Source: Octopus vulgaris (lineage: Eukaryota). From it: a DNA stretch of 64,000 nt. A program made the translations under genes and the position numbers. The notes beneath the pieces were generated by a model that had not been told where the DNA came from, ran no database searches, and was given only the letters and a program-made list of their open reading frames with translations. Location of the stretch: the NCBI GenBank assembly GCA_951406725.2, contig OX597816.1, positions 179,490,001-179,554,000 of the forward strand. The letters are read 5' to 3'. Position 1 is the stretch's first letter. Each line of letters begins with the position of its first letter. Positions 12,882 through 58,120 of the stretch are shown here, piece by piece.

Positions 12882-12966
12882 ATGCACTACAGCTGTTTCC
12901 AGCAAATTTTTAATTGATTAATGGAGACATTACACCATTAGAAAAAACTGTTTCCATCAGGTGAAT
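12882..12966 (-). ncRNA. Hammerhead motif with long stem II
   Basis: Minus strand ATTCAC-CTGATGG...long imperfect hairpin...GAAAC-AGCT-GTA-GTGCAT; palindromic ACAGCTGT; GUA triplet. Confidence 0.6.
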
Positions 12967-13276
12967 ACACGAACCATAACATTTAAAAACGTTCAAAATC
13001 CAATGGGATGTGCATCTTCATGATTCTATGAGCCTTGCTTGTCATAGAATGAATTTGTTAGTTCAGTTTGGTAGTATTATAGGAGAAAACAAGACGTTAC
13101 GTGCAGGGTAACGAAGATTTATAATGATGAAAGAAGTTGGAGGATGAAGTAAGAGGGGGAGTCGGATAGTGAAGCATCTCACTACTCCTACAACAAAAAG
13201 TTGGTTTCTTTCATCTTTTAATTTTATTCAACAACCAGTTTTAGGGTTAAATAAGTGCAAGGTCACGTAGTTATTT

Positions 13277-13680
13277 ACTCTTTTACTTGTTTCAGTCATT
13301 TGACTGCGGCCATGCTGGAGCACCGCCTTTAGTCGAGCAAATCGACCCCGGGACTTATTCTTTGTAAGCCCAGTACTTATTCGATCGGTCTCTTTTGCCG
13401 AACCGCTAAGTAATGGGGACGTAAACACACCAGCATCGGTTGTCAAGCAATGCTAGGGGACAAACACAGACACACAAACATACACACACACACATACATA
13501 TATATATACATATATACGACAGGCTTCTTTCAGTTTCAGTCTACCAAATCCACTCACAAGGCTTTGGTCGGCCCGAGGCTATAATAGAAGACACTTGCCC
13601 AAGATGCCACACAGTGGGACTGAACCCGGAACCATGTGGTTGATTAGCAAGCTACTTACCACACAGCCACTCCCGCGCCT
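13277..13680 (-). mobile_element. tRNA-derived SINE family A, full-length; other copies at about 3800-3920, 15347, 15755-15913, 21160-21520, 43365, 46795, 48077-48455, 52198
   Basis: Head GGCTGTGTGGTAAG...GGGTTCAGTCCC (A/B boxes), internal (CA/TA)n, ends GCAGTCAAATGACTGAAACAAGTAAAAG. Confidence 0.85.
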
Positions 13681-14206
13681 ATATTATTTATATATTTATT
13701 TATTTGATAGCCTTGTATATATACTCTTTTAAAACCAAATGACTACAAAATCGAGACAATATGACTAAAATTATACGATGGTGGGAAGGGTATGAAACAA
13801 GAAGAGTGGCCAGCATATCAATAATTAGATAAATAAAGGAGTATACAGTAGAAGGCATACCATAAAGAATTATACGAAAGCAAATGGATAATGGTAAAAG
13901 AAGGTTTATAATAAAAAAAGATTATAAGAAAAATTTTGGATAATAATAAAAAATAAAATTATTAGATGGTGAATATGCAAATAATATCGTAAGAATTAAA
14001 AAATAATTAAGAAGTAGTTAAAAAAAACATAAAAGAAAAAAATTAAAGTAAAATAGAATAAAGTAAGGATAAATAAAATAAGGATAAAATAAAGTAGCGA
14101 GCAAAAGGTAAATTAGAGAATAATATTAATAATAAAAATAATAATATAATAATAGAAATATTAAAATTACTAAGTCTCTCTAAAGGAGATTACGGCAGCG
14201 TTACTG

Positions 14207-14580
14207 GATATTAATAGTTATCGCCATACTAATATGGCAGTCTATAAATAAGACTAAAGCTGTCGCTGATTAGCTCCAAGAGGCCACCGCCTCTAGCTAG
14301 CTATATGACACACGAATCTGCATCCATTACAACCTTCGAACAGGGGAGGTCAGCCGCTTCACCTTGCTAGCCAGACATCTGCAGACATGTTTCAGGGTTG
14401 TTGCCCTTTATCAATGCAGCGTAGTCAGAACCAGCAGGTGTCGCTACTGACCGTCTGTAATGGACGCAGGTTCATGTGTCATATAGCTAGCTAGAGGCGA
14501 TGGCCTCTTGGTGCTAATCAGCAACAGCTTTAGTCTTATATTTATAGACTGCCATATTAGTATGGCGATAACTATTAATA
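14207..14580. repeat. Foldback inverted repeat (about 125-bp arms), Penelope-like
   Basis: ATTAATAGTTATCGCCATACTAATATGGCAGTC...CCATTACA is mirrored by TGTAATGG...GACTGCCATATTAGTATGGCGATAACTATTAAT; the spacer holds an HHR. Confidence 0.85.
14379..14419 (-). ncRNA. Minimal hammerhead motif with variant core, in the loop of a foldback repeat
   Basis: Minus strand CTGCA-TTGATAA-AGGG(caacaa)CCCT-GAAAC-AT-GTC-TGCAG; palindromic ACATGT; GUC triplet; core differs from CUGAUGA at two positions. Confidence 0.65.
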
Positions 14581-15933
14581 ATATAATAATAGAACGTATA
14601 ATAACCAAAATTCAATAAATAAGTATAATGTTATGAAATGAATAAAAATATACGAAAATATAAAAATAAGAAAGCAGTATGGTATACATGTGTGTGTGTC
14701 TGTCTGTATGTGGAGGAGGTAGACCCATGAAGACATGGGATGAAGTGGTGAGGCATGGTCTTTGAATACTGGGCCTCATGGAGGCAATGACAAGTTACCA
14801 GGACCTTTGGCAATATGCTGTGTGTGAGAAGTCCCAATAAAGCCCAATGAAACCATAGTCATGGCCAATGCTGGTGTCACATAACAGGCTCCCATGCCAG
14901 TGACATGTAAAAGACACCCTTGGCAATATGCCGTGCTTGAGAAGACTCACCAAAACAAGTGAAATCATAGTTGTGGCTGTTGCTGGTGTCATGTGGATAG
15001 CACCAACGCTGGCGGCATGTAAAAAGCAACCATTACACTCTTGGAGTGGTTGGCATTACGAAGGGCATCTACTTGTATAAACCATGCCAAATCAGATTGG
15101 AATCTGGTGCAGCTCTCCAGCCTAGCAGTTTCAGTCAAAGTATCTAACCCATACCAGCATGGAAAGCAAACACCAAATGAATGACGATGATGTGTATATA
15201 TATATATATATATATATTTATTGGCTAAACTGACAAAATGACCATTCCTAAATACAACAATATCTGTTTCAACACACGATTTCACATCAAAAATCTTGCA
15301 AAACAAATATATAAACGTATATATATATATATATAAATATTTATATATGGCTGTGTGGTAACAAGCTTGCTTCCCAACCGCATGGTTCTGGGTTCAATCC
15401 CACTGCATGGCACCTTGGGCAAGAGTCTTCTACTATATTCTCAGGCTGACCAAACTAGATGGAAGCTGTGAAAAAAAGCTGATTGTATGTATGTATGTAT
15501 GTATGTATGTATGTATGTATGTATGTATGTATGTATGTATGTATGTATGTATGTATGTATGTGTGTGTATGTGTGTGTGTATGTATGTATGTATGTATGT
15601 ATGTATGTATGTATACATACACATATATATTTGTAAATATCTAAGTGTGTATGTCTTTGGGTCTTTGGGTCAAGCAACGGTGGGGGGAAAACACAGACAC
15701 AAAAAACATACACACATAAAAATATATATACATATACATACACATGTATATATGATGGACTTCTTTCAGTTTCCGTTAACCAAATCCACTCACAGTGCTT
15801 TGTTCAGCCCAAGGCTATAGGAGAAGCTGTTTGCCCAATGTGCCATGCAGCAGGACTGAAACTGGAACCATGTGGTTGGGAAGCAAGCTATTTACCACAC
15901 AGCTATGCCCGCGCATATTTATATATACATGTT

Positions 15934-17181
15934 TAGGGAGCGGTGAATAAAATGTCATCTAAATTATGTAAAAATGAAAATAATACTGACAGATATTGAC
16001 AGATATATGTACCAAAATTGAAAAAAAGTATCTTGAGATACTAAAGAGTAGAGTTATTCAATAAAATTGTCATTGGCCTCCAGACAACTTCATAATCTCC
16101 TGCAGCTCTTCTGAATGGTCTCCTTGTTTAAGTTGGTGAATGCTGCCATAATCCTTGTCTTCAGTTCATCTTTGGTGTTAGGAGTTTTGTTAATCTCTTG
16201 CTCAATTGTGCCTCACACATAATTATCAAGTGGGTTGCAGTCTGGGGAGTTAGGTGGCCACAGAAATTGTCTAACAGCCATGACTGGGTTCTCCTGCTTG
16301 TGTGGCATGGTGCAGAGTCTTGTTGCCAGACATAGTCTTCCAGCATCCACTCTCTTGACCCAGGGCAACACTACCTCCTCCAGGCTCTTGATGTAGGCCT
16401 ATGTGTTGAGTATGAGGCTGTGTGGCAAGATGAATAGAGGCATAATGTTGCCATCACTAGTGATCACTCCAAACACCATGATGTTGACTGGATGTTTGAT
16501 TTTTAACACTCTTAGTACATGTTTTGGAGACACGGCAAGCCAATGGTTGTTCTGTGTGTTCACCATCTGATCCTGCCAGAAATTTTTCTTGTCTGAGAAA
16601 AACCAAAGCATGGAGGGCATGCATGAGTTTGTTCAAAAGCTTCGTAGTGCAGTCTTTCCTCTTGTTCTTGATGTCTTGGGATAAAAATTGGCCCTTTCTC
16701 ATCTTGTATGAGGAATACCAAATGTCTTCAAGTACTACCTGCCTGATAAGAAACTCAGACATTCCAATGTCCCTGGCGATGATAGACCTGATTGACTTGG
16801 GGGGGATCATTGTCAATCATGGCCTGGATCTCACCAGCAAATTCAGTAGCTCTTTTCTTATCAGAATGATGAGAATGTTTCGAGCTGCCGTACCATCACC
16901 ATTAGACTCATCCAACTCTTTCTGAATCCTCTGCACTCTCCTCAGATTAACACCCAAACACTCTGAAATGTTTGTATTGGAGCTGCTGGCACAAATGCCA
17001 AGCAGTGCAGCATGTCGTTCCCAAATTTCTGGCAGAGTGAATTGCAACATCATGCTGCTTTTCTCACAGATGGTGCCCAACTGACCCTACTATACTGCGT
17101 TGTTGACAAAATCAAAAACAAACAATGTGCATGCACAAAATTAAAAATACAAAATGGCGATGATTTACCCATTGCAACCTG
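15934..17181 (-). mobile_element. Decayed Tc1/mariner DNA transposon (maT/DD37D-like), frameshifted transposase at about 16060-17063
   Basis: Motifs FFSD, MVFGVITSDG, WQQDSAPCH, PNSPDCNPLD (third catalytic residue D), N-terminal HTH-like segment; degenerate TIRs. Confidence 0.85.
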
Positions 17182-17370: not shown

Positions 17371-17723
17371 AGCAATAAGAAAATGGAGGGGATCAATAGG
17401 TGGTTCATCAACTTTTAGACATTATATTATGTTAATTTATTTATTTATATACTAAAATGACAATTACAAGAATATACATACATGTATAACATATTCTGCT
17501 TTACATATAAAATATATAAAGATACCAGTAATTATTACAATATATAACATGCAGTCCTGTATGTTATATATTTTAATAATTACTAGTATCTTTATATATT
17601 TTATATATACATATACACATATTCTTGTAATTGTCATTTTAGTAAATAAATAAATAAGTTGACATAATATAATGTCTTAAAGTTGATGAACCAACTATTG
17701 ATCCCCTCCATTTTCTTATTGCT
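17371..17723. repeat. Long, nearly spacerless inverted repeat (about 170-180-bp arms)
   Basis: AGCAATAAGAAAATGGAGGGGATCAATAG... versus ...CTATTGATCCCCTCCATTTTCTTATTGCT; centre ACATGCAG-TC-CTGTATGT. Confidence 0.85.
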
Positions 17724-17739: not shown

Positions 17740-18880
17740 ATCATCATCATCATCATCATCATTTAACGTCCATTTTCCATGCTAGCATGGGTTGGACGGT
17801 TCGACCAGGGTCTGGTAAGCCATGGAAGCTGTACCAAGCTCCAGTCTGATTTGGCAGTGTTTCTACAGCTGGATGCCCTTCCTAACGCCAACCACTCTGT
17901 GAGTGTAGTGGGTGTTTTTTATGTGCCACTGGCACAGGAGCCCACACAGGGTGGCAAACGGCCATGATCAGTTGGTGCTTTTACATGTCACCGACACGGA
18001 CGCCAGTCAGGCGATGCTAGTAACTGCTACGCTCGAACGGTGCTTTTACATGTCACCAGCACTGGTGTCTTAACTACAATTACCATTCAAATTTTTGATG
18101 TTGACGAACTTGACTCAACAGGTCTCCTCAAGAACAGCGGGTCACTCTACGATCCAAGGTTAGCACAGCAGGTCGTCCTGCAAGCCATGAACTCACTTCA
18201 TTTGTCGGGTCTTTGAAGTCACAGCATATCTCCAGAGGTCTCGGTCTTTCGTCATAGCTACAGTGAGGCTCAAAGTACGAAGGTCATGCTTGACCACCTC
18301 GTCCCATGTCTTCCTGGGTCTACCTCTACCCCGGGTTCCTTCAACAGTTTGGAAGCGGCACTTCACACATCTCTCCTCGTCCATTCTTAGTACATGACCG
18401 TACCAATGCAATCGTCTCTCCTGCACGCTGCATCCAATGCTTCTCATGCCCAACCAGGACGCTCACACTCTGTCGTGCAGGGACACTGACATTACACATC
18501 CAGCGGATCATGCTAGCTTCATTTCTTTCAAGCCTATGCATGTCCTCTGCAGTCACGGCCCATGTTTCACTGCCATGAAGCATGGCAGTTCGTACACATG
18601 CATCGTACAACCTACCTTTCACTCTGAGCGAGAGACCCTTTGTTGCCAGTAGGGGGAGAAGCTTCCTAAACTTTGTCCAAGCTATTCTTATTCTAGTGGT
18701 AACGCTCTCTGAGCATCCACCACCACTACTAACTTGGTCACCTAGGTAGCAGAAACTATCAACTACTTCTAGTTCCTCCCCAAGGAGTGTAATGGAATCT
18801 GTTTTCTGAGTATCAATGGTGTCAATTGCCCCTGTGCATCTGCCGCACACGAAAGCTATCTTCTCGGTTAATTTTCCTTG
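17740..18880 (-). mobile_element. 5'-truncated RTE-clade LINE with 3' UTR and (GAT)n tail
   Basis: VDSFCYLG...MLHGSETW...RRLHWYGHVLRM...GRGRPRKTW; tail CATCATCAT-TTAACGTCC on the + strand. Confidence 0.9.
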
Positions 18881-19479
18881 GATGTTGCTGCACCTCTTAT
18901 GAGTCCATAGCTTCTGTTATACAGAATTACAAAACTGTTAATATGAAGGAATACCTCTTACAATACACTTATTTAGCAAGATATGTGGCTGTAGGTAATA
19001 GAAAAGGCAGAAAGTACAACAACCTAATGGACTTAGCTTCTTAATCTGAAACAATTTAAGTGCCCCATAATCGAGAAGCTTTTGGTTAATGTTGTATTGA
19101 GCTTTCAATTATGTATTGTCATTTCTTTGTTACACAAATGTCCCTTGCAAAAACAATTTATTGTATATCTATCATATATACAGGTGCAGGTGTGGTTGTG
19201 AGGCAAGAAGTATGCTTCCAAATCATATGGTCTCAGGTTCAGTTCCACTGTGTGGCACCTTGGGCAAGACTTTTTTTTATTTCACATTGCTCCAGTCCAC
19301 TCAACACACACACACACACTTTTCCCCTGCTCTTATCTATCATTATCAATGACACTCATTTACTAATTTTGATCTTGTTGCAATGAAAAGCACCAGCTCT
19401 TTTCATGAAACTAGTTTTCTATGAATATATATTCCTTGCTATAAGTTTATCATTAGTTTTACAGTTGAGTGGCTTAAAG

Positions 19480-19522
<43 letters not shown>

Positions 19523-19585
19523 GGAGTAAACATAAATGTGAAACAAGGTGGAAAAAAGAGTATTCAAATACCAGTGGTAGAGTAA

Positions 19586-19721
19586 TATGCTTTATTTAAA
19601 GCAGCAGAAAATTCAACAAAATCTGTTACTCTGAGTTTCCCGTTGCAAAAACTGTCCGATGAACGGCAACGGGAAACTCAGAGTAACAGGTTTTGTTGAA
19701 TTTTCTGCTGCTTTAAATAAA

Positions 19722-19725
<4 letters not shown>
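19586..19725. repeat. Foldback inverted repeat (about 60-bp arms) between (TA)n tracts
   Basis: TGCTTTATTTAAAGCAGCAGAAAATTCAACAAAA...CCCGTTGC / GCAACGGG...TTTTGTTGAATTTTCTGCTGCTTTAAATAAAGCA. Confidence 0.9.
19652..19689 (+). ncRNA. Minimal hammerhead motif with variant core, spanning the loop and right arm of a foldback repeat
   Basis: CTGT-CCGATGA-ACG(GCAA)CGG-GAAAC-TCAGA-GTA-ACAG; stem I CTGT/ACAG; GNRA loop II. Confidence 0.6.
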
Positions 19726-19781
<56 letters not shown>

Positions 19782-20833: not shown

Positions 20834-22496
20834 TTATTTATTTGTTTTTCAGATTAGAAACATTTGTCTCTAAACTGAAGTAATTGTGAAGATGTTATAC
20901 AGAATTACAAAACTGTTAATATGAAGGAATACCTCTTACAATACACTTATTTAGCAAGATATGTGGCTGTAGGTAATAGCAAAGGCAGAAAGTACAACAA
21001 CCTAATGGACTTAGCTTCTTAATCTGAAACAATTTAAGTGCCCCATAATCGAGAAGCTTTTGGTTAATGTTGTATTGAGCTTTCAATTATGTATTGTCAT
21101 TTCTTTGTTACACAAATGTCCCTTGCAAAAACAATTTATTGTATATCTATCATATATACAGGTGCAGGTGTGGTTGTGAGGCAAGAAGTATGCTTCCCAA
21201 TCATATGGTCTCAGGTTCAGTTCCACTGTGTGGCACCTTGGGCAAGTGTCTGCTACTATAGACCTAAGCTGACCAAAACCTTGAATGGATTTGGTTGACA
21301 GAAAATGAAAGAAGCCCATTATATATAAATATACATATATATCTACAAATATATGTGTGTGTGTGTATATATACACACACACAACAGGCTTCTTTCAGTT
21401 TCTGTCTGCCAAATCCACTCACAAGACACTAACCCAAGGTGTCATGTCATGGTACTGAACACAAAGCCATGTGGTTAGGAAGCAAACTTCTTACCACACA
21501 GTCATACCAGTGCCTATGTATCCATCATATATAAATATATATAGATGTTTGTATGTATGTTTGTGTGCATGCACATGTGTGTGTTACTGTCTCTTTGCCT
21601 TAATTTCATGTGATAGCTGTGTAAGTGTATGTCACAGTCATGCAAGGAATGTGTCGTTTCTAATCTTCCATGAAAACATGTCAGGACGTAGGGAATATTA
21701 CCTTACTAGGAAACGGGAGGCTTGGCAATGAGAGGAGCATCAGGCTGTTGTAAATCTGCCTCAACAAATTACGTCTGGAAAAGTAACTATTAAGCAATGA
21801 TGATGATGGTGATAATGATTGTATAACTTTGTGACGCAAGCTGGAAACAGCACTAATCTCATTTAAGAAACTTAAACTCATGCAGATAAAAATCAAGTCT
21901 AAACTCGAGCAATATGCAACAATTCATGATAGCAATGGCAATGATGATGATGTTGTTTTTGTTGTTGTTGATGGTGGTGGTGTGGTGAAGGTGACAATGA
22001 TGATGATGATGATGACACTTATTGTAGAAAAGTACCTTACCAGTGTTGATGGTGTCATGGAACAAAAGATGAAAGAACAGGATGAAACCCGTAATCAAGG
22101 ATTCCTTAGGAAAATGCTTGGCCTAACTAAAGTATCAAGCTTTTATGCTTCCAGGGAGATATGAAAATGTTATAGAGTACATGTAGCAAGTGAGTACATG
22201 TAGCAAGATATATGATTGGGCAGTTTGTAGCAGATAGTCATGAAGATAGGAAGCATTACAACTTGAAGAGTCAAAGCGTTGCTTAACCTACAGCAGTGAA
22301 AAAGACTTTTGGTATTTGTTATATTGAACATGTATTTATCATTTACATGTCATGTCAATGTTTCTAGTAAAACTATTTATTGTATATCTTTGTGAATTAT
22401 TTACCCCTTAACAGTAACAATGCTTTTGTCCAAGCTACTGATATATAAATAAGATAATACTTGATAAAAGTGGAAACACAGTGCTAATTTAAATAT

Positions 22497-23160
22497 TGAT
22501 TTCAAATTTTAGCAGAAGGCCAGCAATTTCGGGGCAATGGGTAAGTCATTACATTGACCTCTAGTACTCATGTGGAACTTATTTTTATTGACCCTGAAAG
22601 GATGAAAGGCAAAGCTGACCTCAGAAGAATTTGAACTCAAAACGTAAAGACAGACGAAACGCCACTAAGCATTTTGCTCAGCATGTTAACAATTCTGCCA
22701 GTTTATTACCTTAAAAAGGGTAATTACTGGCTTCAAATTTTGGCACAAGACCACAATTTCATGGAAGGAGCTAAGTCAGTTGCAATCGACTGGTGTTCAG
22801 TTGGTGCTTATTTTATCAACCCTGAATAGATAAAAGCAAAGTCAACCTCAGTTGAATTTGAACTCAGAAGATAAAGACAGACAAAATGCCGCTAAGCATT
22901 TTGCCTGGTGTGCTAAGGATTCTGCCAGGTTGCCCACCTTAGTACCAATGTAAATACTGATTTCAGATTTCGGAACAAAGCCAGGAATTTCAAGGGAGGG
23001 GCCAAATCAATTACATCAACCCCAGTGTCCAGTTGGTACTTATTTTCTTGACCCCCAAAAAGATGAAAGCAAAGTCGACCTCAGAGGTATTTGAACTCAG
23101 AACATAAAGACGGACGAAATGCTACTAAGCATTTTGCCTGACATGCTAACGATTCTACCA
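22497..23160 (-). repeat. Tandem trio of family B SINEs
   Basis: Three consecutive diverged copies of about 215 bp. Confidence 0.8.
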
Positions 23161-27474: not shown

Positions 27475-28171
27475 CTAGCACTATGACCCGGTGCTGTTGG
27501 GTCTAGTGCTAGTCAAGCATATTTGGTCTTTCATGAAAATCCCGCTCCCTTGTCATTCACTTGGTCTAACTCGTTAATTATTCCCTGCATTTCTCAAATC
27601 AAAAAAGCTTGCACGTCTGAAAGCCAAAACACAAAAATGCACAGTCATACAGACTGTCTGCAAATGCACATGCGCATCCAACTGTCAGGTGTAAAATTAT
27701 CTCCATCCAATCAAAAAACAGACATTTTGCCATTTATAGATATAGAGATTTTAAGCAAACGTTCAGAAATTCTCTGGGAAACTGGAAAATCCAGAAATCC
27801 GGGACATTTCCAGATCTAAATTGGATAAATTGGTCTGGTACAGTATTGAGGAGTGATACATAACAAAGGGAGGGAAATGCAAAGTTTTAAAGAGTTATTT
27901 CCCTTGCTATGGTTTTATATCTTTAGATTAAACTCCTGGATTAAGTGAGTTACGTCCCTTGTATTAAAGACTTTTGTTACATGAAACATAAGGGGTCGGT
28001 TTATCGATTTTTTTAAATGGCTTTCAGGGGTAACTGGGAAATGAAAAGATCTTCACAACCACCCTTGGACAGTTTTGAATGACCATAGAAAGTGCAAGCC
28101 CTCTAACTGAAAAATTGTGGATTTGTATAAAGGACACACACACAGACATTTTGACGTTTATATATAGAGAG
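27475..28171 (-). mobile_element. Helitron-like element, possibly compound
   Basis: CTAG end with hairpin; two TCTCT..TATAAA 5'-like ends (about 27748 and 28171). Confidence 0.55.
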
Positions 28172-38405: not shown

Positions 38406-38598
38406 GTGTATATATATATGTAAATATATTATATGTATATTATATGTTATATATATATTATATATTAATATTTATATATATATGTATGTAAATATATGTA
38501 TATATATGTTATATATATATATATATATATTTCGTTTTGGGATTTGGTTTGCAAGATTTTTTATATGAGTTCGTGTGTTGAAGCATATTTTGATGTGG

Positions 38599-38842: not shown

Positions 38843-38889
38843 ACACAATAGTATATATATATATAATATTTATATGTATATATATAATA

Positions 38890-41607: not shown

Positions 41608-41820
41608 GGCGGCGAGCTGGCAGAAACGTTAGCATGCCGGGCGAAATGCGTAGCCATATTTCGTCAGCCGTTACATTCTGAGTTCAAATTCCGCAGAGGT
41701 CGACTTTGCCTTTCATCCTTTCGGGGTCGATAAATAAAGTACCAGTTTCGCACTGGGGTCTATGTAATTGACTTAATCCCTTTGTCTGTCCTTGTTTGGC
41801 CCCTTGTGGGTAGTAAAGAA
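41608..41820 (+). mobile_element. tRNA-derived SINE family B; other copies at about 10830-11030, 11605-11815, 11890-12100, 20000-20205, 28181-28395, 46217, 48893, 49546
   Basis: GGCGAGCTGGCAGAA...GAGTTCAAATTCC...GTCGACTTTGCCTTTCATCC. Confidence 0.85.
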
Positions 41821-43019: not shown

Positions 43020-43365
43020 GTGTGCACACACGTGTATATATATATGTGTGTGTGTGTGTGTGTATTTATATGTATTTGTTTTATGTGTATATATATATAT
43101 ATATATATGTGTGTGTATATATATGTGTGTGTGTGTATATATTTATATATATATATTTGTTTTCTGTATATATATTTATGTAAGTGTGTGTATGTATATA
43201 TATATGCGTGTGTGTATATATATATGTATGTGTGTATATATATATATGTGTGTGTGTATATATTTATATATATATTTGTTTTCTGTATATATATTTATGT
43301 AAGTGTGTGTATGTATATATATATGCGTGTGTGTATATATATATGTATGTGTGTGTGTGTGTGTG
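43020..43365. repeat. Compound (TA)/(TG) microsatellite with an internal duplication of about 120 bp; other microsatellites at 3213-3414, 12102-12190, 15485-15612, 38348-38530, 55131-55190, 59645-59708
   Basis: Seen directly in the sequence. Confidence 0.9.
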
Positions 43366-45658
43366 TGGCTCTGTGGTAAGTAGCTTGCTCACCAACCGAA
43401 TGGTTCTGGGTTCAGTCCCACTGCATGACACTTTGGGCAAGTGTCTTCTACTGTAGCCTCGGGCTGACCAAAGCCTTGTGAGTGGATTTGCTAGACGGAA
43501 ACTGAAAGAAGCCTGTTGTATATGTTTGTGTGTCTGTGATTGTCCCTCCTACTATTGCTTGACAATTGATGGTGGTGTATTTATTATCCAACAACTACCA
43601 ATCAATTTTGCTAAAACATTCTGTAACAAATATTTACTTTCTGTGTGGGAATATAATTTTCCATCAGAAGTATATTCGTGTATGTAGAATGAATGAGATG
43701 TGTGTGTTTTATTAGGAATAAATAGCCAAACAACTTCCTTTGTCATTTTTGAATAAGACAAATATATATAAATTAGTGACGGTTTTGTAATTGGACATTT
43801 TATACATGTAAAAGCTAATTCTCCTCAGTCAGAGATCGACTGAATCTGAGTATTGATTATATTTTTGAAATACATTGATTTTTATATATATAAATGTCTT
43901 CCTAATTGAAATTATATTGTCACTGTTTTTATTGCTTATATACTTAAACCTTCAATATCGATTTCTTACATAGGCACAAGGTCACACATATTTTGTGGGG
44001 AGGGAACACTCAATTACATTGATCCAGTACTTGACTGGCATTTATTTTTTCGACCCCGGAAGAATGAAAGCCAAAGCCAATCAGAGATTTGAATTCAGAA
44101 TCTAAAGGGACACAGCTAGACTACAAAGCGTATCGGTCCCATACTCTTACTATTCTACCAATCCAGAGCCTTTTAAATTTTTTTTGATATCAGTCAATCA
44201 ATGAATCAATAAATCAATCAATATATAAAATCTGTTTACGATACTTTTTCCAGCCTTCAGTGGAATCTGTGAAGTATGTCTCTGGCAACTCAGCCTCTAT
44301 TTACCAACTTGGTATTGATATGTCCTCTCTGGCAATGCTGTCACAGTCATTCCTGTGGAGCACCCCACTTGTTCTGGAAAATGTGGCCCATCGCCCCACT
44401 CTATATTCCGCTGCTTACCTCCCCCCACCACCATTTTTTCCCTTTTCTTTCTCTTCTTTCTTTTTGTATGTGTGAATCTTCCAAATTTAACACTTCCAAT
44501 ATACCTCAGAACCTAACGTGAAAAGGCACAAAAGAAGGGAAACAACTCTGTATCAACCCTCACACAGAAAAGGAATAACTTTATATCATTAAATTTTCAA
44601 AATAAGTTTACCACTCACTTCACACATAACCGATTGTATCTCTTTCAAATAATTAACCCTTTCAATGACAAATTCAGAATCAATTGAAAATTACTTTTGA
44701 ATAGTTCTAGCATGATATAAGCCTTTTCAGTGCTGACTTGAAGTGAATGTATGTTTTGGCAATGTTTTGCTAGCCTAGTCTAATCTTCAACACAAAGGTA
44801 CTCAATCAATGACTAAAAACAGCTCATCAAAATTCAAAGTGTTTGGCATGTCTGTATAGCGGCGGCTGTCGTTGGCTGTTCAAGTGCCTGTTGTTAAATG
44901 GAAAAACTGTATGAATCACAATAAGACATTTTTGTGTATAAATATATTGTTTATTCTGTGTTCACCTTTTGTGGTGGAAGCATGGAGGATGATACAAAAA
45001 CATGTGTGTTTGCATACAAAGAAAGTTTTGATTTTTGCTTTTGCACTGAATAAGTTACATATAATATTTGTATTACAGTATGTAATGAAAACAGTCATTA
45101 TGAGAATGTGTGTGTGATAAAATATCTTCATTTACAAACCATATATCTTGTGTCAAGGGGAATAGACATGTGAGTTGCGCGTGGAGCTGCAGAGAAGACA
45201 TGTGTCTCTGACTAAAGCCTGGCAAGAACTGAGAGTTTCGAATGTGTAGCTCAGAACGAGGCTACTGTATCAAAGTGAGGCTGTGCAGGTTGACTCACAT
45301 ATTACTATGTAATATGTAGCTCTGCTACATCAGTTATAGTCAAGTATTAGCATATCAGTGTTTTTTGATGACCATCCCATCCTTTTGGTCACCATGCTGT
45401 CCTAAGATTTACGTCTTACAACATATGATGTGAAGATAAATATCATGGGTCTTCCAGCAATGATGTTAAATATCTGCCAAAAATAAAATTGTCTTTTTCC
45501 TTCTGCAAGTCACATGACCTCAATATCTGATGAAAAATAATTTGAAACATGACTTCCTCAACAAAAGATAAATGAGTATATAAATAAAGCTATTTGCAGT
45601 TAAGGACAATGAAATTTTGAGTGGATATATCTGATTTCTGCAGTAAAAGATGAGTTAA

Positions 45659-47155: not shown

Positions 47156-47239
47156 CTTGGGCTGATGACGGAAATGTTGATAGGAGTATGTATTTCTAGC
47201 ATCTCTTTATCCAACTAATCCAGAAACGGTGTTCTCAGG
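47156..47239 (+). ncRNA. Hammerhead motif with long stem II
   Basis: CTTGGG-CTGATGA-c-GGA..GTTGATAGGAG..CTCTTTATCCAAC..TCC-a-GAAAC-GGT-GTT-CTCAGG; intact core. Confidence 0.55.
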
Positions 47240-47450: not shown

Positions 47451-48037
47451 CTAGCAGCTAAGCGCGTTTTCACCTGGTCGGTTTGGATGATGTAGCTATA
47501 AAACCTGCTCTGTGTAAGCATTCAACTTGTTTGGACATGCTTACATTAAAAAACAATTTTAGAATGACTTTTTTTCTGTCAAAATGCTAAAAATAATTGA
47601 CCAACAACAAAAAAAAAGCAACCAAGATTCAACCAAATCAAAAAATAAACCGAAATACTAAGTGAACAAAGATGAACCATCCCACTTCCATTGCATATGC
47701 GCACACATTCACATAACCCCCCTTTTACATACACATATATTCACACAAAGTTGAAACATTGTTTGATTTATTTTTTTCAGTGTGCACCACCAAGCATGAC
47801 ATCACTCCTTCCTCCCTTATTCGGCTATCACTCCTTCCTTTCTCATTCATAAACACAAGAGTATTATTATAGTAGATTATCTCGGTAACCATGGAAACTA
47901 TGAAAAAATACAAAGCCCAGCATCAACACTGGATCATTCTACACATCTGTGTAATTTTTTGCGCAATTCCACCCAGCCATTTGACCGTGAATCCCAAGAC
48001 AAGAAAGAATCACCCATGTCAAATTTATATGTATATA

Positions 48038-48040
<3 letters not shown>
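47451..48040 (-). mobile_element. Helitron-like element; related fragment at about 58125-58195
   Basis: A|CTAGCAG terminus; shares TATAGTAGATTATCTCGG.AACCAT with 58131. Confidence 0.5.
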
Positions 48041-48069
<29 letters not shown>

Positions 48070-49949
48070 GGTGAAGGTGCAGGCATAGCTGTGTGGTAAG
48101 AAGCATACATCCCAACCACATGGTTCTGGGTTCAGTCCCACTGTGCACCACCTTGGGCAAGTGTCTTCTACTACGGCCTTGGGCCGGCCAAAGCCTTATG
48201 AGTGGATTTGGCAGATGGAAACTGAAAGAAGCCCGTCATATATATGTATATGTATACATCTATGTATCTGTGTTTGTCATCCCATCACTGCTCGATAACC
48301 AGTGTTGGTGTGTGTGTCTCCTGTAACTTAGTGGTTTGGCAAAAGAGACTGATAGAATAAGTACTAGGTCTTAATAAACAAGACCTGGGGTTGATCTATT
48401 TCGGCTAAAACCCTTCAAGGCCATGCTCCAGCATGGCTACAGTCAAATGACTGAATATATAAATGTACATGCATGTGTGGTGTGTTTTGTATTTATATTT
48501 GCATGTCTTTGTGCTATGTTTATCTCAACCACCAACCCACCACCACCATTGCTTGACAACAGGTGTTGATTTGTTTATGTCCCTGTGGTTCGGTAAAAGT
48601 AACTAATACTATAAGTATCAGAAATAAAAAATAAGTACCAACTCAATTTGGTTCAGTCCCACTGCATGGCCTCTTGAGTAAGTATCTTGTACTATATCTC
48701 TATACTGACCAATGTGTTGTGAGTGAACTTCATAGACAGAAACTCTGAGGAAGTCCTTTGTGTATGTGTGTGCATGTGTATACATATGCCCTTCAAGGCA
48801 ATGTCCTAGCATGGCTGCAGTCCAATGACTGAAACAAGTAAAAGATAAAAGATGCTTCATTTTTCTATTAACACATCTCTCCATACAGAAGCTGGTGAGC
48901 TGACAGAATCATTAGCAAGCCGGGCAAAATGTTTAGCTGCATTTCGTCCTTCTTTATGTTTTGAGTTGAAATTCCTCCAAGGTTGACTTTGGCTTTCATT
49001 CTTTTGGGGTCAATAAAATAAGCATCAGTTGAGAACTGGGGATGATGGCCAAAATTTGAAACCAATATATTTCGCTATAGGATTTACTTTCATGTATATT
49101 TTTACTTCTATATTCATTTTCATTCACTTTCAGTTGTTCGTTTTCAACTTTAATTTCATTTGTCGTAACCAACTGATTCTCCAAACTGATTCCCTTACCT
49201 TGCTGTAACAAGCAATGGATTCCAAAAACTCAGTTTCCTTTTCTTATCTCATTGCTTGCACCTGTTCTTAATCAGTCTGATTAAGAATCTGTCTTACATA
49301 TACAAACTTGAAATAATGATCAATGGAATCACATATCACTTTGACAACAACATAGATTACAGGGTAGTCAGAGCGGTGTGTGAGGTGTTTGTAAAATGGA
49401 TTAGGTCAGTATATTCAAGAAGAGTGAACTTAATGCTGAGGCTTTTTACATTCGTTGTTTTTAATATATTCTTTTTGGCTTCTTGAATAGATTGTAGTTT
49501 AAGGATGGTTTAGTGTAAATGATAATAATATGAAATATTAACTAAGGTGGTGAGCTAGTAGAATTGTTAACATGCCAGGCAAAATGCTTGGTGGCATTTC
49601 GCCCATCTTCATGTTGTTCTAAGTTCAGATTCTGCCAAGTTCAGCTTTGTCTTTCATCCCTTTGGGGTCAATAAAATATGCACCAGTTAAGCATTGAATC
49701 AATTTAATTGACTTAATCCCTCCCCAAATTTGCTGGCAAAATTTGAAACCAATAAAATATGTTAACTCAACTGATATGGACCAGTGCATTAGAAGAACTT
49801 ATTTTATGAAGCCTGGAGTAATATGAGATAATTTCAACAACTTCTGAACATATTTGTAGGTAGAAACTTGAGGAATATACAAAAATACATCTAGTCTACT
49901 TCTTTATCATGTTGTTTTTTTTGTTATTATGGCTGGGTTTCAACCTGAG

Positions 49950-50580
49950 CCACAGCAACAAAGTCTACCTGCCCCACTTGTCAGTCCATTATTACTGCCT
50001 TGAGATCCTAGATACATTCCAGGCCAATGTTTGCAATCAAGTTGTCAATGTAAGTGGGACGACCTTTTCTTTTTACATCACCATGAAGTGGGTTCCCCAG
50101 CACTAATTTGGATGTTAACAATTCAGGGCAGTGCATGCAGTGATCCAGATAGTCGCAGTAGTCTTTGCCTGATCTTCTCACAAGCTTTCACAGGCCTCCA
50201 TAAAGGCATTCATTTATATCTTGCTGCCATTTCACATTTAGCACCATTCATAGCATCCTTATGTAACATCCATTTAGCACATTTGATCATTTCTTTGTCG
50301 GTGTCCATATTTCACTGCCATATAATAGCACTGATCTGACAGTTATAATGAACAGATTGATTTTGATTTGCCTGGGACATTTGGAGTTCCAGACCTTCTT
50401 TAGTTTGTGATAGGTTGTCCTTGCCTTCCTGATCTTGATGTCTGCTTCCAAAATGCTCACCCAAACATTTAAGTGCTTGAAGTTTTCAGCAACATACAAA
50501 TTGGAACCACTCAGCAAAAACAGTTCAGCATCACTTGATTGGCTGAAAGGCATGCATTCTGTTTTCTTAACATTTGCAAA
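49950..50580 (-). mobile_element. Decayed RTE-like LINE fragment
   Basis: FKHL...DIKIRKA...KINLF...VRSVLLYGSEIWT. Confidence 0.7.
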
Positions 50581-51720: not shown

Positions 51721-52384
51721 AAGGAAAAGGGCCTTAAAATGCTTGTATTGTATTGAATTAATATAGCTTTTTCATCTGCAATAGTTGGTTCAATCTCTGT
51801 AAATAAGCATGGTAACCAGAACAATTAATTATATCAGAATATGTCTGAAACCAAGTCATTATGTGGTCGACACATGTTGGGTCTATGTTCTAAGAGAACA
51901 TAGAATCTGAAGTAGACTTCAAAGGTGAAAAAAAAATTATGAACATTTGCTGTTGCAATTATGAAAATTATTTTAATTATATTGATTGACAATTACAGTC
52001 AAACAATAACTTTACTTTTATAGATGGCTGTTGCTAAGAAATAACATAATGGTTGAGAAAATATAGCAATTCTTTAAACCTGTGATTATCTTTCCATTTC
52101 ATTTCTATCAAAGTGTGAAAATATATTGCATTTAAAAACATATAATTATCACCAAATTGCCTTTTGGCATAATTTCAGATTATTTGTAAAACTGTATTAG
52201 GTGCAGGTTTGATTTTGTGGTGAGAAGCTTGCTTTTCAACTATATGGTTCTGGCTCCAGTTCTACAGTGTATCACCTCAGGCAAGTGTCTTCTATTATAG
52301 CCCTGGGCCAATCATAACCTTGTGAGTGGATTTGCAAGATGGAAACTGAAAGAGCCCTGTTGTGTGTGCAATGTGTGTGTGACC

Positions 52385-53420
52385 ATGCTACCACAAACAT
52401 TGACCCAAGCTTCCATCCCATCATGAAATGATTTGATTATTGTTACAAACTGATACGGGGCATCCAAGTTTGCCAAATATTTTCCATAGGGAGGCCCTAT
52501 TCACAGTATCAAAGACCTTGGTTAAATCAACGAATACCTGGACAAGATCCATATTCTGCTCATATCACTTCTTCTGCATCTGTCTCAGTGTGAAAATCAT
52601 ATCCATCGTTCCTCTTCCAGGTTGGAAACCACATTGAGATTCAGATAGGACATCATTTACAAGATACCTATTCAGGCAAGTAAGAAGAATACTTGCCACA
52701 ACCTTGCCAGCAGCTGATAGTAGCGCAATACCTCTGTAGTTGCCACACTCTACTCTGGCTCTGTTTCCTTTATAAAGAGGAAAAATAATTGCATCCTTCC
52801 AATTCTTAGGCATTGCACTATCCCCCAGATTACACTAATAAGTTCATGAAGGGATTGTGTGATGTGATCACCACCAAATCACAGGACCTTTACTCATGTG
52901 AGTCATGGACCCTTTACAAACGTCACGTAAAGGTCCTTGAATGCTTCCATCAAAGATGTCTGAGACACATTCTGAATGTTGGCTGGACCTTAAAAACTCC
53001 AGAATGAATGATAACAGAATCCCTCAACAGATACTATATGGGGAACTTGTTGGTGGAAAGCAACACCGGCAGAAACCAAGACTGTGACTTAAGGGCTGTG
53101 TAAAGTCCTCATTAAAGGCCTGTAAAATGTGGGAGGCTAACTGGGAGAGCATCGCCATGAATGGAGGGAATAGGTAAAGGGGGAAGTCGATACTTTTGAA
53201 AGAGCATGTATTCTTCATGAAGAATTTAAGTGTGCTGCTCGAAAATGCACTGCTAATGTAATGAATGGGAAAAGCTTAGTCTGCAATCATATATGTTTGT
53301 CAAGAGCAGGACTCACTAGTCACCAACGGAGCTGCAAGTATAAAGTATAAGGTAGCCTTGAGTGCACTATGTTCCTAAAGGTCAGTAATGGTTTTTCTCA
53401 GTCACAAGTGGACAGCCATT
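52385..53420. mobile_element. RTE LINE insertion with an inverted 5' part, nested inside a SINE
   Basis: Minus-strand RT segment (NYRGIALLSAAGK, ESQCGF.PGRGT.DMIF) abuts a plus-strand C-terminal segment (LYSCESWTLY...FHQRCLRHIL); SINE halves at 52198-52380 and 53440-53650. Confidence 0.85.
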
Positions 53421-55762: not shown

Positions 55763-56211
55763 AGGTCACCGGAATTCATTCAAAAAAAAAAAAAAAAATT
55801 CAATGATTCCGAGATAGGGGGAAGGTCCGGTTTTCCACCCCCCCTTTTTTTCGAACAAAAATAAGGGGTTTGCAGCATATTCAGAGGTGAGTCTACTTGA
55901 TTCCACGCAAAAAATCCGAGTTTTTTCTCTTAGTGAAAATCGTGCGGGTGTAAAGATCAATGGGTGTAGGGGTGAAATTTCCGAGGCTTCCCTCTCACCC
56001 CACCCCGTTTTCCGGACCCAAAAAGGATTTTGTAGCATATTATGAGGTCACCGGAATTCATTCAACGAACAAAAAATTCAATGATTCCATGATGGGGAGG
56101 GGATCCGGTCCACCCCCTTTTTTCCGAACAAAAATAAGGGGTTTGCAGCATATTATGAGGTCAGGGTACTTGATTCCCCGCAAAAAATCCGAGTTTTTAT
56201 TTCTTAGTGAA
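55763..56211. repeat. Tandemly duplicated unit of about 170 bp (55763-55938 and 56046-56211) in a transposon-like repeat
   Basis: AGGTCACCGGAATTCATTCAA...CGAACAAAAATAAGGGGTTTGCAGCATATT...GCAAAAAATCCGAGTTTT occurs twice. Confidence 0.75.
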
Positions 56212-56255
56212 AGAATCAAATAATACCCGGGTATGACCTCACAGTCCACATTCCA

Positions 56256-56680
56256 CTACTGAACCCTTATGCCTCCCCTTAAGATGGCACATCCACTCTC
56301 AACATATATGTCACTTTCTTCCATCTTTTCTCGTATATACTTAGTGGCAAGTACCACCTCTCTTGCCTTATTTTTCTCTTGAGTTGGGAAACTAAGAAGC
56401 TTACCGACCCTGGAGATGAAGTCGCCTGTCACTTCTTTCATGCGAGACTTCCGTACAACCTCTTTTGCAATCGCAGCTACAGCGAGAAAACAGACCTTCC
56501 TTTCCCTTTTCAGAGAGGGTGGTGGAACAATCTTTATAATTGACTCGGAAGACAGCAACTGTTCAACATAAACACACAACTCCGATAGTTTCGGACATTG
56601 CACAATAGCGTGCAGAACAGTTTTACTGCTCTGCTCGCATTTTTGGGCAAGTGAGTTAGCATGAAGAGCCATGCTTGGTG
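56256..56680 (-). mobile_element. Tx1/L1-clade LINE C-terminal (zf-RVT) fragment
   Basis: C...KTVLHAIVQCP....L..YVE zinc-knuckle-like motif. Confidence 0.65.
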
Positions 56681-57900
56681 AGTTTATCTCGAACTGATAA
56701 GGCTCCTCGGTAACGTTGCTAAGCCAGAGACTTTTAGAAGTTATCCAAAAGCCCCGGCCCGAATGTCCTTCGGAACAAACCAGCAAGCTGACCTTCGTCG
56801 AAGCAAGCAAGGAATGTGTATTTACATTGATTGCGTCGTTTTATTTTAAACTGCTCGACGTTTGAGTTAGCAGTGGCAGCAACCTCCAACTATAAGTCGT
56901 GGTCGCTGCGACGTATTTCGGTTAAACACCACGGACGAGGGTAAAGTTGACAAGGTGTTCTATCGAACATCGGCTTGCCGGGACCTCTTCGTCCTTTACA
57001 AGTCGGTCTTCCCCATTGGGGCTAAGATAAGCTACGTATATAACAAGATCGTCCGGATACACAAGAGATACAGTGACAACAGCCAACCCTGTACACTGGC
57101 GAACTGCCCTATTCGCAATACTAACATGTGCCTACGTACCTAAGTAGTATACCAGATAGGTTGCTCCGAGTGCACAGCTATCACATCAGTAGCTTGTAAT
57201 AGTATTTGTAAGACAACTAGAAACAAATACAAAAAAGAAGTCAGTATTTCGTTTGTGAGCAATAGATGGAAGGCTGCTTCATTAGTTCATTGAAAAAGTT
57301 ATACCTAGTGTGTTTACATACGTTGTAAATAACCTAAGCAACTTAACAAATCGTTTATCACAGCAATAAATAAAGTCAAGGCTTATGCTCTCCATCCCCC
57401 ACTGTTTCAACAGTTCTGCATTGGGTTAATGTTGACATTATTATCCGGAAACGAAATCCAGAAAAAAAAAAGTGCAACGGTTGTAAAAAAAAAAAGGTGT
57501 AGAAACCGAATCTGAAAACAAAAATGTGCGGAGAGTAATAAGGGAGTGGGGAGAGGCCTTCGGAAAATTCACAAGATCCGATGTTTTTCCCTCATAACTT
57601 TTAGGAAAATAGGTTTCTTTCAATGAAATTCTATATAAATACCTTTCAAACGGTATAGATTACGATTATAAAGAAATCTGTGGGGAAAAATCTTTTTCGA
57701 TAGGTTGGGGAGAGGACTTCGGAAAACTCACAAGATTCACAAGATCAGAATTTTCCCCTCGTAACTTTGAGGAAAATATAAACCTTTTGAAATCACAAAT
57801 TAGGCTTTTCCTCAGGAACTTGGATGCTAAACATCCCTTTGAAGGCTTCGGGTCGTTACTTCTTCTACTACTACTACTACTACTACTACTACACACACAC

Positions 57901-58120
57901 ACCACTACGCCATATGCCTACGGGCATATGGCGTAGTGGTTAAGAGCGCGAGTTCGATTCCAGGCAGTGACTTTAATAAAAAATAACATCAAAAAATACC
58001 TTTGGAATGATAATTCAAGACACCTGATGAAGGCTGGAAGGTATATCAGCCGAAACGTTGTGTTAACAACAAACAAGATGAGGACAAATATTCGTCAAAT
58101 ATAAATAATATAAATAATGT
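57901..58120 (+). mobile_element. Putative tRNA-headed, hammerhead-containing SINE with an inverted 5' duplication
   Basis: A box TGGCGTAGTGG (57929), B box GAGTTCGATTCC (57950), HHR at 58019-58064, AT-rich tail, 18-bp 5' foldback. Confidence 0.6.
58019..58064 (+). ncRNA. Minimal type I hammerhead ribozyme motif (Penelope-like)
   Basis: GACAC-CTGATGA-A-GGCTG(gaaggtatat)CAGCC-GAAAC-GTT-GTGTT: intact core, stems I and II, palindromic AACGTT stem III. Confidence 0.8.

Follow-up and report, generated by a model that had tools for sequence, protein, structure and literature searches.

How did six hammerhead ribozyme motifs come to lie within one 64-kb stretch of Octopus vulgaris DNA (contig OX597816.1, positions 179,490,001 to 179,554,000; all 64,000 nt are here called the window), and what elements carried them there? 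A preliminary description placed the motifs at 12882(−), 14379(−), 19652(+), 38719(+), 47156(+) and 58019(+), here H1 to H6, and ascribed them to several retrozyme-like, non-autonomous families derived from Penelope elements (PLEs). The motifs are real, and most likely they are mostly dead tail ends of PLEs, a known kind of debris; the finding as first noted extends a known phenomenon to a new host. The preliminary description missed that H6 belongs to a very abundant repeat in which a tRNA-like start is joined to the ribozyme, a pairing that we did not find in print. We consider it probable that the motifs are minimal hammerheads likely derived from the pLTRs of at least five to six unrelated octopus PLE families, now short stubs that are probably inactive, and that H6 lies in a ~200-nt tRNA-headed repeat probably mobilised in trans by Penelope proteins.

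Hammerhead motifs in the window

A recognisable motif is present at each of the six coordinates, but the quality is uneven: two are intact (H6 and H2), two near-intact (H5 and H3) and two decayed (H1 and H4). The core CUGANGA / GAAA / UH, or the accepted U3:A8 covariant seen in H2 and H4, is found in H6, H5, H2 and the arms of H4; H3 carries U4C and H1 carries A9G. Stem III (15.2–16.2) is palindromic in five of the six (H1, H2, H3, H4 and H6), not in H5. H6 and H4 have in common a single extra base between 9 and 10.1, i.e. before stem II, as well as G10.1–C11.1. The stems had been said to differ and yet still pair, which holds for H6 and H2, where they pair beside the core, whereas the first stem II pair is faulty in H5 and H3 and pairing fails in H1 and H4. 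The divergence of the sequences was borne out. None of the 15 element pairs beat the best of 100 shuffles, indicating that the six elements are unrelated in sequence.

H1 (nt 12882–12966, minus strand) is a decayed hammerhead-like motif with the core CUGAUGG, extra bases, a weak 3-bp stem II, an 8-nt palindromic stem III and a GUA triplet. Its stem I register is absent from the predicted fold, and its pattern, defined post hoc, is present in 4 of 300 shuffles. H5 (nt 47156–47239, plus strand) is a near-intact hammerhead with a canonical core, a long stem II and a 3-nt loop III, predicted to be cut after nt 47233. The first pair of its stem II is C·A, likely the result of CpG decay. No foldback was found near H1 or H5.

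The motif counts exceed those of shuffled sequence when the comparison is run on the window. The strict descriptor gave 2 matches against a mean of 0.03 in 60 block-wise dinucleotide shuffles, none reaching the observed number. A descriptor with known core variants gave 3 matches (shuffle mean 0.23), and the loose core of the preliminary description gave 4 (shuffle mean 0.40), namely three of the six motifs and an extra one at 44648; both counts were reached by 0 of 60 shuffles. The reversed/complement controls yielded 0, 1 and 2 matches for the strict, known-variant and loose descriptors, respectively. In a relaxed scored scan the motifs at 14379, 58019, 19652 and 47156 rank top, with 4 at a score of at least 20 against a mean of 0.10 and a maximum of 1 in 40 shuffles; this score was designed after the motifs had been seen, and those at 12882 and 38719 were not recovered by it. 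Candidates at 51280(−) and 44648(−) were dropped, their scores being within the shuffle range. An Rfam search of the window returned no hammerhead family, only hairpin and microsatellite noise.

A chance origin of the motifs in AT-rich repeat DNA finds some footing in the yield of the loose core from shuffled and reversed/complement sequence, in the failure of the scans to recover H1 and H4, and in the silence of Rfam. Such an origin is nevertheless scarcely credible for the set as a whole, given that no shuffle reached the strict counts, that the four best motifs far exceed their shuffle mean, that features outside the descriptor recur, and that the H6 family is canonical in its majority. Chance is refuted for H6, H2, H5 and H3, and could apply to H1 alone.

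The earlier statement that no RT ORF lies nearby agrees with our scans, which found no PLE reading frame in the window. Pfam, applied to 16 of the 119 ORFs, gave no GIY-YIG and a single weak RVT_1 match at nt 52565–52831, and a six-frame scan with PLE motifs gave nothing coherent. A protein search with the host ORF returned no match.

Foldback insertions

Three of the motifs were described as lying at the centre of long inverted repeats, and H2, H3 and H4 do lie at or in such a centre, the arms being identical at 117/123, 61/62 and 109/123 positions (61/62 in H3). The H2 hammerhead (nt 14379–14419, minus strand) is an intact minimal type I motif of the U3:A8 variant, with a 5-bp stem I, a 4-bp stem II and a 6-nt palindrome, predicted to be cut after nt 14384. 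It occupies the 124-nt loop of the foldback, and its stems I and II are predicted to pair with p 0.78–1.0 in the whole element. The insertion of 418 nt (nt 14158–14575, minus strand) is a head-to-head foldback with arms at nt 14209–14331 and 14456–14580 and a one-sided extension of 51 nt (nt 14158–14208). It is flanked by an exact 19-bp target-site duplication (left, nt 14139–14157; right, nt 14576–14594), a 19-mer with 2 occurrences in the window; seven A-rich control stretches share 7–13 nt. For H1, H5 and H6 no convincing target duplication was found.

The H3 hammerhead (nt 19647–19695, plus strand; first placed at 19652) is a near-intact U4C variant predicted to be cut after nt 19685 and buried in its foldback. 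Its stem II has A·G as the first pair, followed by only 2 bp, and its stem pairs are predicted with p 0.00 in the whole element and 0.00–0.26 alone. The insertion (nt 19521–19724, plus strand) lies in (TA)n, with arms at nt 19585–19646 and 19666–19727, a one-sided extension of 64 nt (nt 19521–19584) and the 5′ half of the hammerhead at its centre. The H4 insertion (nt 38530–38847, plus strand) likewise lies in (TA)n, with arms at about nt 38594–38707 and 38720–38847 and a one-sided extension at about nt 38530–38593. Each arm holds a part-deleted U3:A8 hammerhead, with cores at nt 38722–38728 (+) and 38705–38699 (−). The decayed plus-strand motif (nt 38722–38758; first placed at 38719) had been called degenerate, and correctly so: its stem I is incomplete within either single arm and becomes complete only if its 5′ strand is taken from the left arm and its 3′ strand from the right. 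In both H3 and H4 the predicted hammerhead fold is destroyed by the foldback.

All three foldbacks consist of very short copies set head to head, with an extra 51–64 nt (about 50–65) on one arm only, and 4 of the 6 arm starts fall inside the hammerhead or no more than 9 nt ahead of the core. Insertion of EN+ PLEs leaves an inverted 5′-truncated copy head to head with a one-sided tail (PMC8557442, Craig 2021; PMC3846280, Arkhipova 2013), and two RT start sites explain the one-sided extension (PMC11167929, Frangieh 2024). These papers also describe AT-rich or (TA)n targets, occasional target duplication, a 5′ palindrome and trans mobilisation by pLTR sequences. The elements of the window resemble this scar in the head-to-head arms, the extension of one arm, the AT-rich or (TA)n target, the duplication (H2) and the 18-bp 5′ palindrome (H6). 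As to targets, H3 and H4 sit in (TA)n, H2 is within its 19-bp duplication, and H6 adjoins a microsatellite. They differ in that both copies are extremely short, that the extensions of 51–64 nt exceed the reported 30–40 bp, a point against our explanation, and that no parent ORF is linked. By analogy, the foldbacks are the known PLE insertion scar and not a retrozyme: the window has no tandems, and two of the hammerheads are buried in a hairpin.

As a separate observation, none of the families could be matched to an autonomous partner, and H2–H4 might be foldback families with fixed junctions, the sampling of copies having covered the H6 family; both points tell against the explanation we prefer.

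The repeat carrying H6

The H6 hammerhead (nt 58019–58064, plus strand) is an intact minimal type I motif with a canonical core, 5-bp stems I and II, a 4-nt palindromic stem III, an extra A before stem II and G10.1–C11.1, predicted to be cut after nt 58059. It lies in a repeat of ~200 nt that has no reading frame and opens with Pol III A and B boxes. In this tRNA-like head (nt 57923–57975, plus strand), box A (nt 57929–57939) has 0 mismatches to the consensus, and box B, at nt 57952–57960, likewise fits its consensus. The window copy lacks 21 nt between the boxes that other copies contain (42, 46 and 9 contigs at nt 57950); its A–B spacer is 12 nt, and with these 21 nt it would be 33 nt, which equals the spacer of another SINE in the window. 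ARAGORN and Rfam called no tRNA in the head, the query being the deleted window copy, a result that counts against the explanation we prefer. The 3′ part (nt 58065–58121, plus strand) ends in 9-nt AT-rich repeats, and other copies continue for roughly 10–30 nt.

A 5′ palindrome (nt 57901–57940; 18-bp arms, 4-nt loop) overlaps the head, and its inner 4-bp hairpin (nt 57915–57926) is common to other copies. Such a palindrome is a known pLTR trait (PMC3846280), which speaks for a PLE origin of H6. Thirty-seven X17 contigs match H6 up to nt 57915 and then diverge from the window letters; upstream of the head they share letters, with a TATA-like word about 30–37 nt before it. These shared letters lie outside any plain Pol III transcript and count against a passenger of PLEs. 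The X16 loose ends listed before nt 57901 are diverse (55 contigs, agreement 0.44).

In three runs, of three related organisms, 22,256, 9,758 and 12,082 contigs map to a 408-nt stretch around H6, and the copy number is crudely estimated at roughly 10^5. In the consensus of this family, the one family so examined, no other letter reaches 8% in the core or GAAA, and the majority is canonical. The 3′ flanks are diverse (agreement 0.42–0.48), indicating that the copies are dispersed; they are short, non-coding and of high copy number. The summed depth over the head is 8–16 times lower than over the hammerhead, a ratio biased by the two deletions of the window copy, so that most hammerhead copies of the family are not shown with the head.

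Eight of the 15 listed joints connect the hammerhead region, in the right order, with the head or body. Four of the 15 are opposite-strand joints, all at different places (57911/58058, 57913/58076, 57920/58017 and 58019/58064), each supported by 1–2 contigs; the joints number 34 in total, compared with tens of thousands of contigs. Two of those listed go back across part of the hammerhead or tail (58088 to 58028 and 58098 to 58061). LINE-dependent SINEs have a 3′ end with short tandem repeats; the presence of such repeats in H6, the small number of opposite-strand joints and the lack of a target duplication weigh against its being a passenger of PLEs.

Several further readings of the H6 data were dropped. 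X1 was only guessed to be RNA, and its hammerhead/head depth ratio of 15 is like the 8–16 of the others, so nothing was concluded about expression. Depth rises at the predicted cut (58059/60), but the profile is one that edge effects would give on a 105-nt matching segment; the apparent 3′ ends at 58109, 58118 and 58121 follow the 9-nt repeat and were not taken as proof of a two-step tail; and the invariance of the core was not read as selection, because non-core positions also show few variants. No relatives of the elements turned up in metagenome, genome and viral contig collections: the H6 3′ pattern gave 0 loci, while a single viral locus matched the H6 5′ pattern and four metagenome loci matched the H3 pattern, all with dissimilar flanks and set aside as chance.

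Comparison with known systems

In the accessible part of PMC4209133 (Cervera and De la Pena 2014), metazoan PLE hammerheads are minimal type I motifs with a short stem I, an extra base before stem II, a palindromic or absent stem III (15.2–16.2) and the U3:A8 variant. They form many divergent families per genome, with thousands of motifs, mostly single ones tied to truncated PLEs, and include opposite-strand pairs 100–700 bp apart. The window motifs share the layout, the core variants, the unrelated families, the single motifs and the opposite-strand pairs. These traits, together with foldbacks that match the published scar, support the Penelope link first suggested. The systems differ in that one family here appears to reach a rough 10^5 copies against thousands per genome, and that part of the paper describes no tRNA head and has no mention of octopus that we found.

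The closest precedent for H6 is the SINE-like Sm-alpha / Sj-alpha of Schistosoma (PMC6765202, PMC8490949), which is non-coding and likewise has a type I hammerhead downstream of a Pol III promoter. Sm-alpha is often tandem and cleaves in vitro, whereas H6 has a PLE-type minimal motif, appears mostly dispersed and shows PLE-type inverted junctions; the accessible parts of these papers state no PLE partner for Sm-alpha. Animal non-LTR retrozymes (PMC7229834, Cervera and De la Pena 2020; Li, Clavereau and Pollet 2026, bioRxiv 10.64898/2026.07.22.740005) resemble the window motifs in being non-coding and type I, with a proposed PLE origin and many monomers. As far as these sources could be consulted, retrozymes have tandem units, mostly canonical hammerheads, circular RNAs and no described tRNA head, and the window motifs are minimal and non-tandem, although Li 2026 also admits minimal motifs among retrozymes. 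Helenus (Kojima 2024, PMC10886601) is, like H6 in our reading, a non-autonomous retroelement independent of LINEs with a captured tRNA-type promoter; it uses LTR machinery and has no hammerhead, and H6 would be its PLE counterpart.

The literature searched, with subscription journals, Repbase, Dfam and supplements outside the search, gave no report of octopus hammerheads or of a tRNA-headed PLE-dependent SINE; the supplementary alignments of PMC4209133 may include cephalopod motifs.

Alternative explanations

The best reading of H6 is that it is probably a tRNA-headed, SINE-like passenger of PLEs. H6 might instead be no passenger: a longer, autonomous PLE may have captured the tRNA-like head as an internal promoter in its pLTR or 3′ UTR, and its ordinary 5′-truncated ends would make up the ~10^5 copies. 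The fall in depth from hammerhead to head is what 5′ truncation predicts, the common upstream letters and TATA-like word of the 37 X17 contigs fit, and a short frame begins at the AUG of the H6 core, a feature also of Poseidon pLTRs. Yet the listed X16 ends before nt 57901 are diverse, the depth ratio is biased by the two deletions, the 5′ palindrome marks the end of the insertion at the head, and no coding sequence was seen upstream; we regard this origin as unlikely. A conventional LINE-dependent tRNA SINE, with a captured PLE pLTR fragment as its body and the hammerhead as an inert relic, would account for the anatomy (box A/B head, AT-rich linker, short tandem-repeat tail), for the rarity of head-to-head joints and for the dominance of SINEs among octopus repeats (PMC8967140). 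It sits poorly with the four opposite-strand joints, in which an inverted 3′-end copy abuts the head or the edge of the hammerhead, with the partial tandems of the two go-back joints, with the 5′ palindrome, and with a cut site 60–90 nt from the end, like that of the PLE stubs H3 and H4. We judge it distinctly improbable.

Less probable again is the original proposal that several families are retrozyme-like, among them palindromic units propagated as such through self-cleaved circular RNA. The motifs are indeed real and dense, partial tandems exist at two H6 joints, and non-LTR retrozymes have been proposed as PLE derivatives with many monomers. But the class is defined by tandem units and canonical hammerheads, and the window has no tandem and no second copy of a motif apart from those in its own inverted arms. 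In addition, the H3 and H4 folds are destroyed, junctions vary among copies of the H6 family, and minimal motifs on their own showed no cleavage in vitro (PMC4209133). The term retrozyme-like is therefore not supported for the window, no motif being in tandem and the go-back joints being partial and two among those listed for H6. Of the several non-autonomous families proposed, one is shown, that of H6 with its tRNA-like head; H1–H5 may equally be 5′-truncated stubs of ordinary autonomous PLEs.

Proposed mechanism and implications

According to the literature, the PLE protein nicks AT-rich DNA, and RT begins within the RNA at two positions, both downstream of the hammerhead. Priming may then occur on both target strands from separate start sites, or the cDNA may fold back; synthesis would end early, in most cases at the hammerhead or just short of it. 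Either route would leave what the sequence shows, two short copies head to head, one with an extra 50–65 nt, and the foldback would be made at insertion rather than being a self-spreading unit. The H6 family joins A and B boxes to a canonical minimal hammerhead without a reading frame. Pol III would transcribe it from the head, the 3′ part would act as the recognition and priming signal for PLEs, and the hammerhead would ride along. Cleavage of H6, expected to be poor in the monomer, would depend on dimerisation via the palindromic stem III or on assistance from the PLE protein.

A bolder version is offered tentatively, as a possibility somewhat short of probable: an octopus tRNA-headed SINE parasitises PLEs and not LINEs, uniting a Pol III head with a PLE pLTR end that bears a canonical minimal hammerhead, in ~10^5 copies which with the other stubs give one hammerhead motif per 10–15 kb. 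Its 5′ palindrome would be self-primed from the native 4-bp hairpin and would record how PLE inverted junctions form.

SINEs are by definition parasites of LINEs. If true, a tRNA-headed Penelope parasite would broaden this definition in the way that Helenus has done for LTR elements, and the Sm-alpha type of Schistosoma, long without a place, might be explained by it. A natural substrate of ~250 nt with very many genomic copies would map the cis needs of the PLE protein. H6 copies would also show at which points RT begins and ends with respect to the hammerhead. Catalytic hammerhead mutants had no effect on insertion in vitro (PMC11167929).

The six hammerhead motifs

A hammerhead-like layout is present at all six sites of the preliminary description, here called, with their host elements, H1 (12882, minus strand), H2 (14379, minus), H3 (19652, plus), H4 (38719, plus), H5 (47156, plus) and H6 (58019, plus), though intact minimal type I motifs are found only in H6 and H2. 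Stems I and II of these two are predicted to form, with pair probabilities of 0.83–1.0 for the motif folded alone. H5 has a canonical core with a C.A pair at the base of stem II, and H1 an A9G change and a stem II of only 3 bp. H3 combines a weak stem II with a U4C change, a variant for which lower hammerhead activity was reported (PMC3088659, in excerpt). H4 displays a U3:A8 core, one extra G and a stem II of 5 bp. Its right arm has no 5′ stem I strand; its left arm is short of 14 nt, including stem III and the 3′ strand. Because each arm misses parts, the whole motif exists only across the two arms.

The strict descriptor gave 2 matches in the window versus a shuffle mean of 0.03, and the variant descriptor 3 versus 0.23; neither observed count was reached in any of 60 shuffles, so the shuffled-sequence control proposed for the motifs came out in their favor at window scale. 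A relaxed score, devised after the motifs were known, ranked H2, H6, H3 and H5 first, with 4 matches of at least 20 versus an average of 0.10 across 40 shuffles; its scan of the window missed H1 and H4. An Rfam search of the window reported no hammerhead. Kinship among the six elements exceeded the shuffle maximum in 0 of 15 pairs, and within the window none had a second copy except its own inverted arm.

Minimal hammerheads are described as occurring massively and widely across metazoan genomes, where most are single and probably linked to truncated Penelope-like elements (PLEs), some form opposite-strand pairs 100–700 bp apart, and variation inside one genome is high (Cervera and De la Pena 2014, PMC4209133, in excerpt). 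The excerpt lists an extra base before stem II, G10.1–C11.1, a palindromic 15.2–16.2 and the U3:A8 variant, and gives no cleavage for a single minimal motif in the published assay. The motifs of the window share traits on this list; therefore the core observation of the preliminary description is a known phenomenon. Our literature search found no report of octopus hammerheads, the giant squid genome paper gives 235 Rfam hammerhead matches, and Penelope elements and SINEs are abundant in octopuses (PMC8967140). As first written, the hammerhead finding extends a known kind to a new host.

Foldbacks of H2, H3 and H4

As originally noted, three motifs lie in long inverted repeats. In H2, H3 and H4 two copies stand head to head, with arm identities of 117/123, 61/62 and 109/123 and one-sided arm extensions of 51 nt, 64 nt and about 55–64 nt, respectively; H3 and H4 are surrounded by (TA)n. 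An exact 19-bp duplication, with two occurrences in the window, borders H2 (14158–14575), indicating that H2 is one insertion event. The copies begin 41 nt ahead of the core and 53 nt past the predicted cut in H2, at the first base of stem I (direct) and in loop II (inverted) in H3, and about 7–9 nt and 2 nt ahead of the core in H4. The long hairpin is predicted to abolish the hammerhead fold in H3 and H4.

Insertions of PLEs with a GIY-YIG endonuclease carry an inverted 5′-truncated copy and a one-sided tail of 30–40 bp (PMC8557442; PMC3846280, both in excerpt), and in the anole PLE two internal RT start sites lie as far apart as the tail is long (PMC11167929, in excerpt). The three foldbacks resemble such insertions as excerpted, with extensions of 51–64 rather than 30–40 bp. 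The scans agree with the noted absence of a nearby RT frame: 16 of the 119 ORFs and a PLE motif scan yielded no PLE reading frame near the foldbacks, and the RT-like fragment at 52565–52831 resembles a LINE. The proposed Penelope link is supported by traits and scars, which match published PLE ones; PLE parentage is probable.

Anatomy and abundance of the H6 element

Upstream of the H6 hammerhead is a tRNA-like head (57923–57975) with a perfect box A (57929–57939) and a box B (57952–57960), as judged against consensus words. The family was sampled with assembled contigs matched to 57893–58300 only, from four runs: three large ones, of organisms A, D and E, taken as genomic, and one guessed to be RNA. 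They gave 22,256, 9,758, 12,082 and 2,673 contigs, mostly of hammerhead and tail, the part 3′ of it. Summed depth was 1.3–2.3 × 10^5 times the unique flank for the hammerhead and 0.8–1.8 × 10^4 times for the head, as orders of magnitude and not copy numbers. The head is undercounted because the window copy has two deletions.

No alternative letter reached 8% among contigs in the first core box or GAAA. The differences within the motif are all CpG-type, at 58051 (7–10%), 58056 (12–31%) and 58057 (11–28%). Lack of a canonical core at family level, which would speak against the motifs, was not seen for H6, the one family sampled. Between the two boxes, other copies have 21 extra bases (42, 46 and 9 contigs, by loose ends), giving an A–B spacer of 33 nt and an anticodon-like loop of 7 nt. 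About 20 extra bases precede the hammerhead (381, 170, 208 and 69 contigs; agreement 0.68–0.82), beginning with letters also found in the body of the window copy. This linker (loose ends 58016 and 58020) holds a second box-B-like word. In run X1, 6 contigs have a different upstream sequence with this word in it, perhaps from a sister family.

Among the 15 listed of 34 joints, 8 connect the hammerhead region, in order, with head or body and 4 join opposite strands, at four different position pairs with 1–2 contigs each. Others listed are a tail deletion, a flanking-repeat joint and a short skip on the head side that belongs to neither group. Two go-back joints form partial tandems. The listed joints and loose ends therefore place head and hammerhead in one family, and the differing opposite-strand joints, few as they are, show that it makes varying PLE-type inverted junctions.

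In 37 contigs of run X17 the match runs to 57915, upstream of which they share different letters that include a TATA-like word. Thus some copies extend upstream of the head, and the 4-bp hairpin at its 5′ edge (57915–57926) is native. In the window copy an 18-bp palindrome (57901–57940) is centred on this hairpin, whose native state suggests that the palindrome grew from it by self-priming. In two other copies the palindrome has shorter arms, after which the sequence jumps to the predicted hammerhead cut region.

Origin of the elements

We consider it probable that H1–H5 are PLE scars and that H6 is a tRNA-headed passenger, which would be transcribed by Pol III and mobilized in trans. In the main rival reading, H6 is a tRNA promoter that an autonomous PLE captured within its end; the copies reaching upstream of the head agree with this, but we regard it as rather unlikely. 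That H6 is a SINE dependent on LINEs, its hammerhead being a relic, is improbable, since its family shows PLE-type inverted junctions, though few. The preliminary description had proposed several retrozyme-like families from the six motifs. The partial tandems of the H6 family lean that way, yet no motif has tandem units within the window; the label is not sustained, and we hold such an origin very improbable.

For the passenger reading of H6, the excerpted Schistosoma Sm-alpha literature offers a parallel, a hammerhead behind a Pol III promoter (PMC6765202; PMC8490949). Helenus elements captured a tRNA promoter (PMC10886601, in excerpt) and resemble H6 in promoter type, but are LTR elements. 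The literature searched contained no report of a tRNA-headed PLE-dependent SINE; repeat libraries may already list the H6 family, but not under the reading given here. This family is what is new here, and it merits a genome-wide look.

Other repeats and sequence setting

The window has 36% G+C and many microsatellites and interspersed repeats. LINE-like frame fragments on the minus strand (52565–52831, 18193–18913, 50287–50580 and 56256–56837; weak RVT_1 and DUF6451 matches, others by eye) have no link to any hammerhead. Two further SINE-like families, at 10812–11067, 11591–12138, 22480–23160, 28162–28405, 41606–41782 and 48889–49760, and at 13291–13724, 15295–15935, 43310–43583, 48028–48455 and 52198–52381, are abundant, with copy-to-copy likeness of 70–80%; in one of the copies, A/B boxes lie at 15348/15392.

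A 354-nt direct repeat (18915–19268 and 20893–21246, 99.4% identity) brackets a 2-kb stretch with H3 and is either a recent local duplication or an assembly artefact. A fourth long foldback, 17371–17723, is AT-rich, with arms about 87–92% identical and extra sequence on the left side, and ends near (CT)n(TA)n. The motif scans found no hammerhead in it, and it could be a MITE or the scar left by a PLE that lacks a hammerhead, for example a Naiad.

The ORF at 37646–38305 matches a protein named from Octopus bimaculoides with 87% identity across 85% of the ORF. Taken as 37646–38308 (plus strand), it is an intact coiled-coil frame of 220 aa with relatives in O. bimaculoides and Macrostomum. The H4 foldback (38530–38847) begins about 220 nt after its end; if H4 lies within the 3′ UTR, its long hairpin would make a candidate A-to-I editing substrate.
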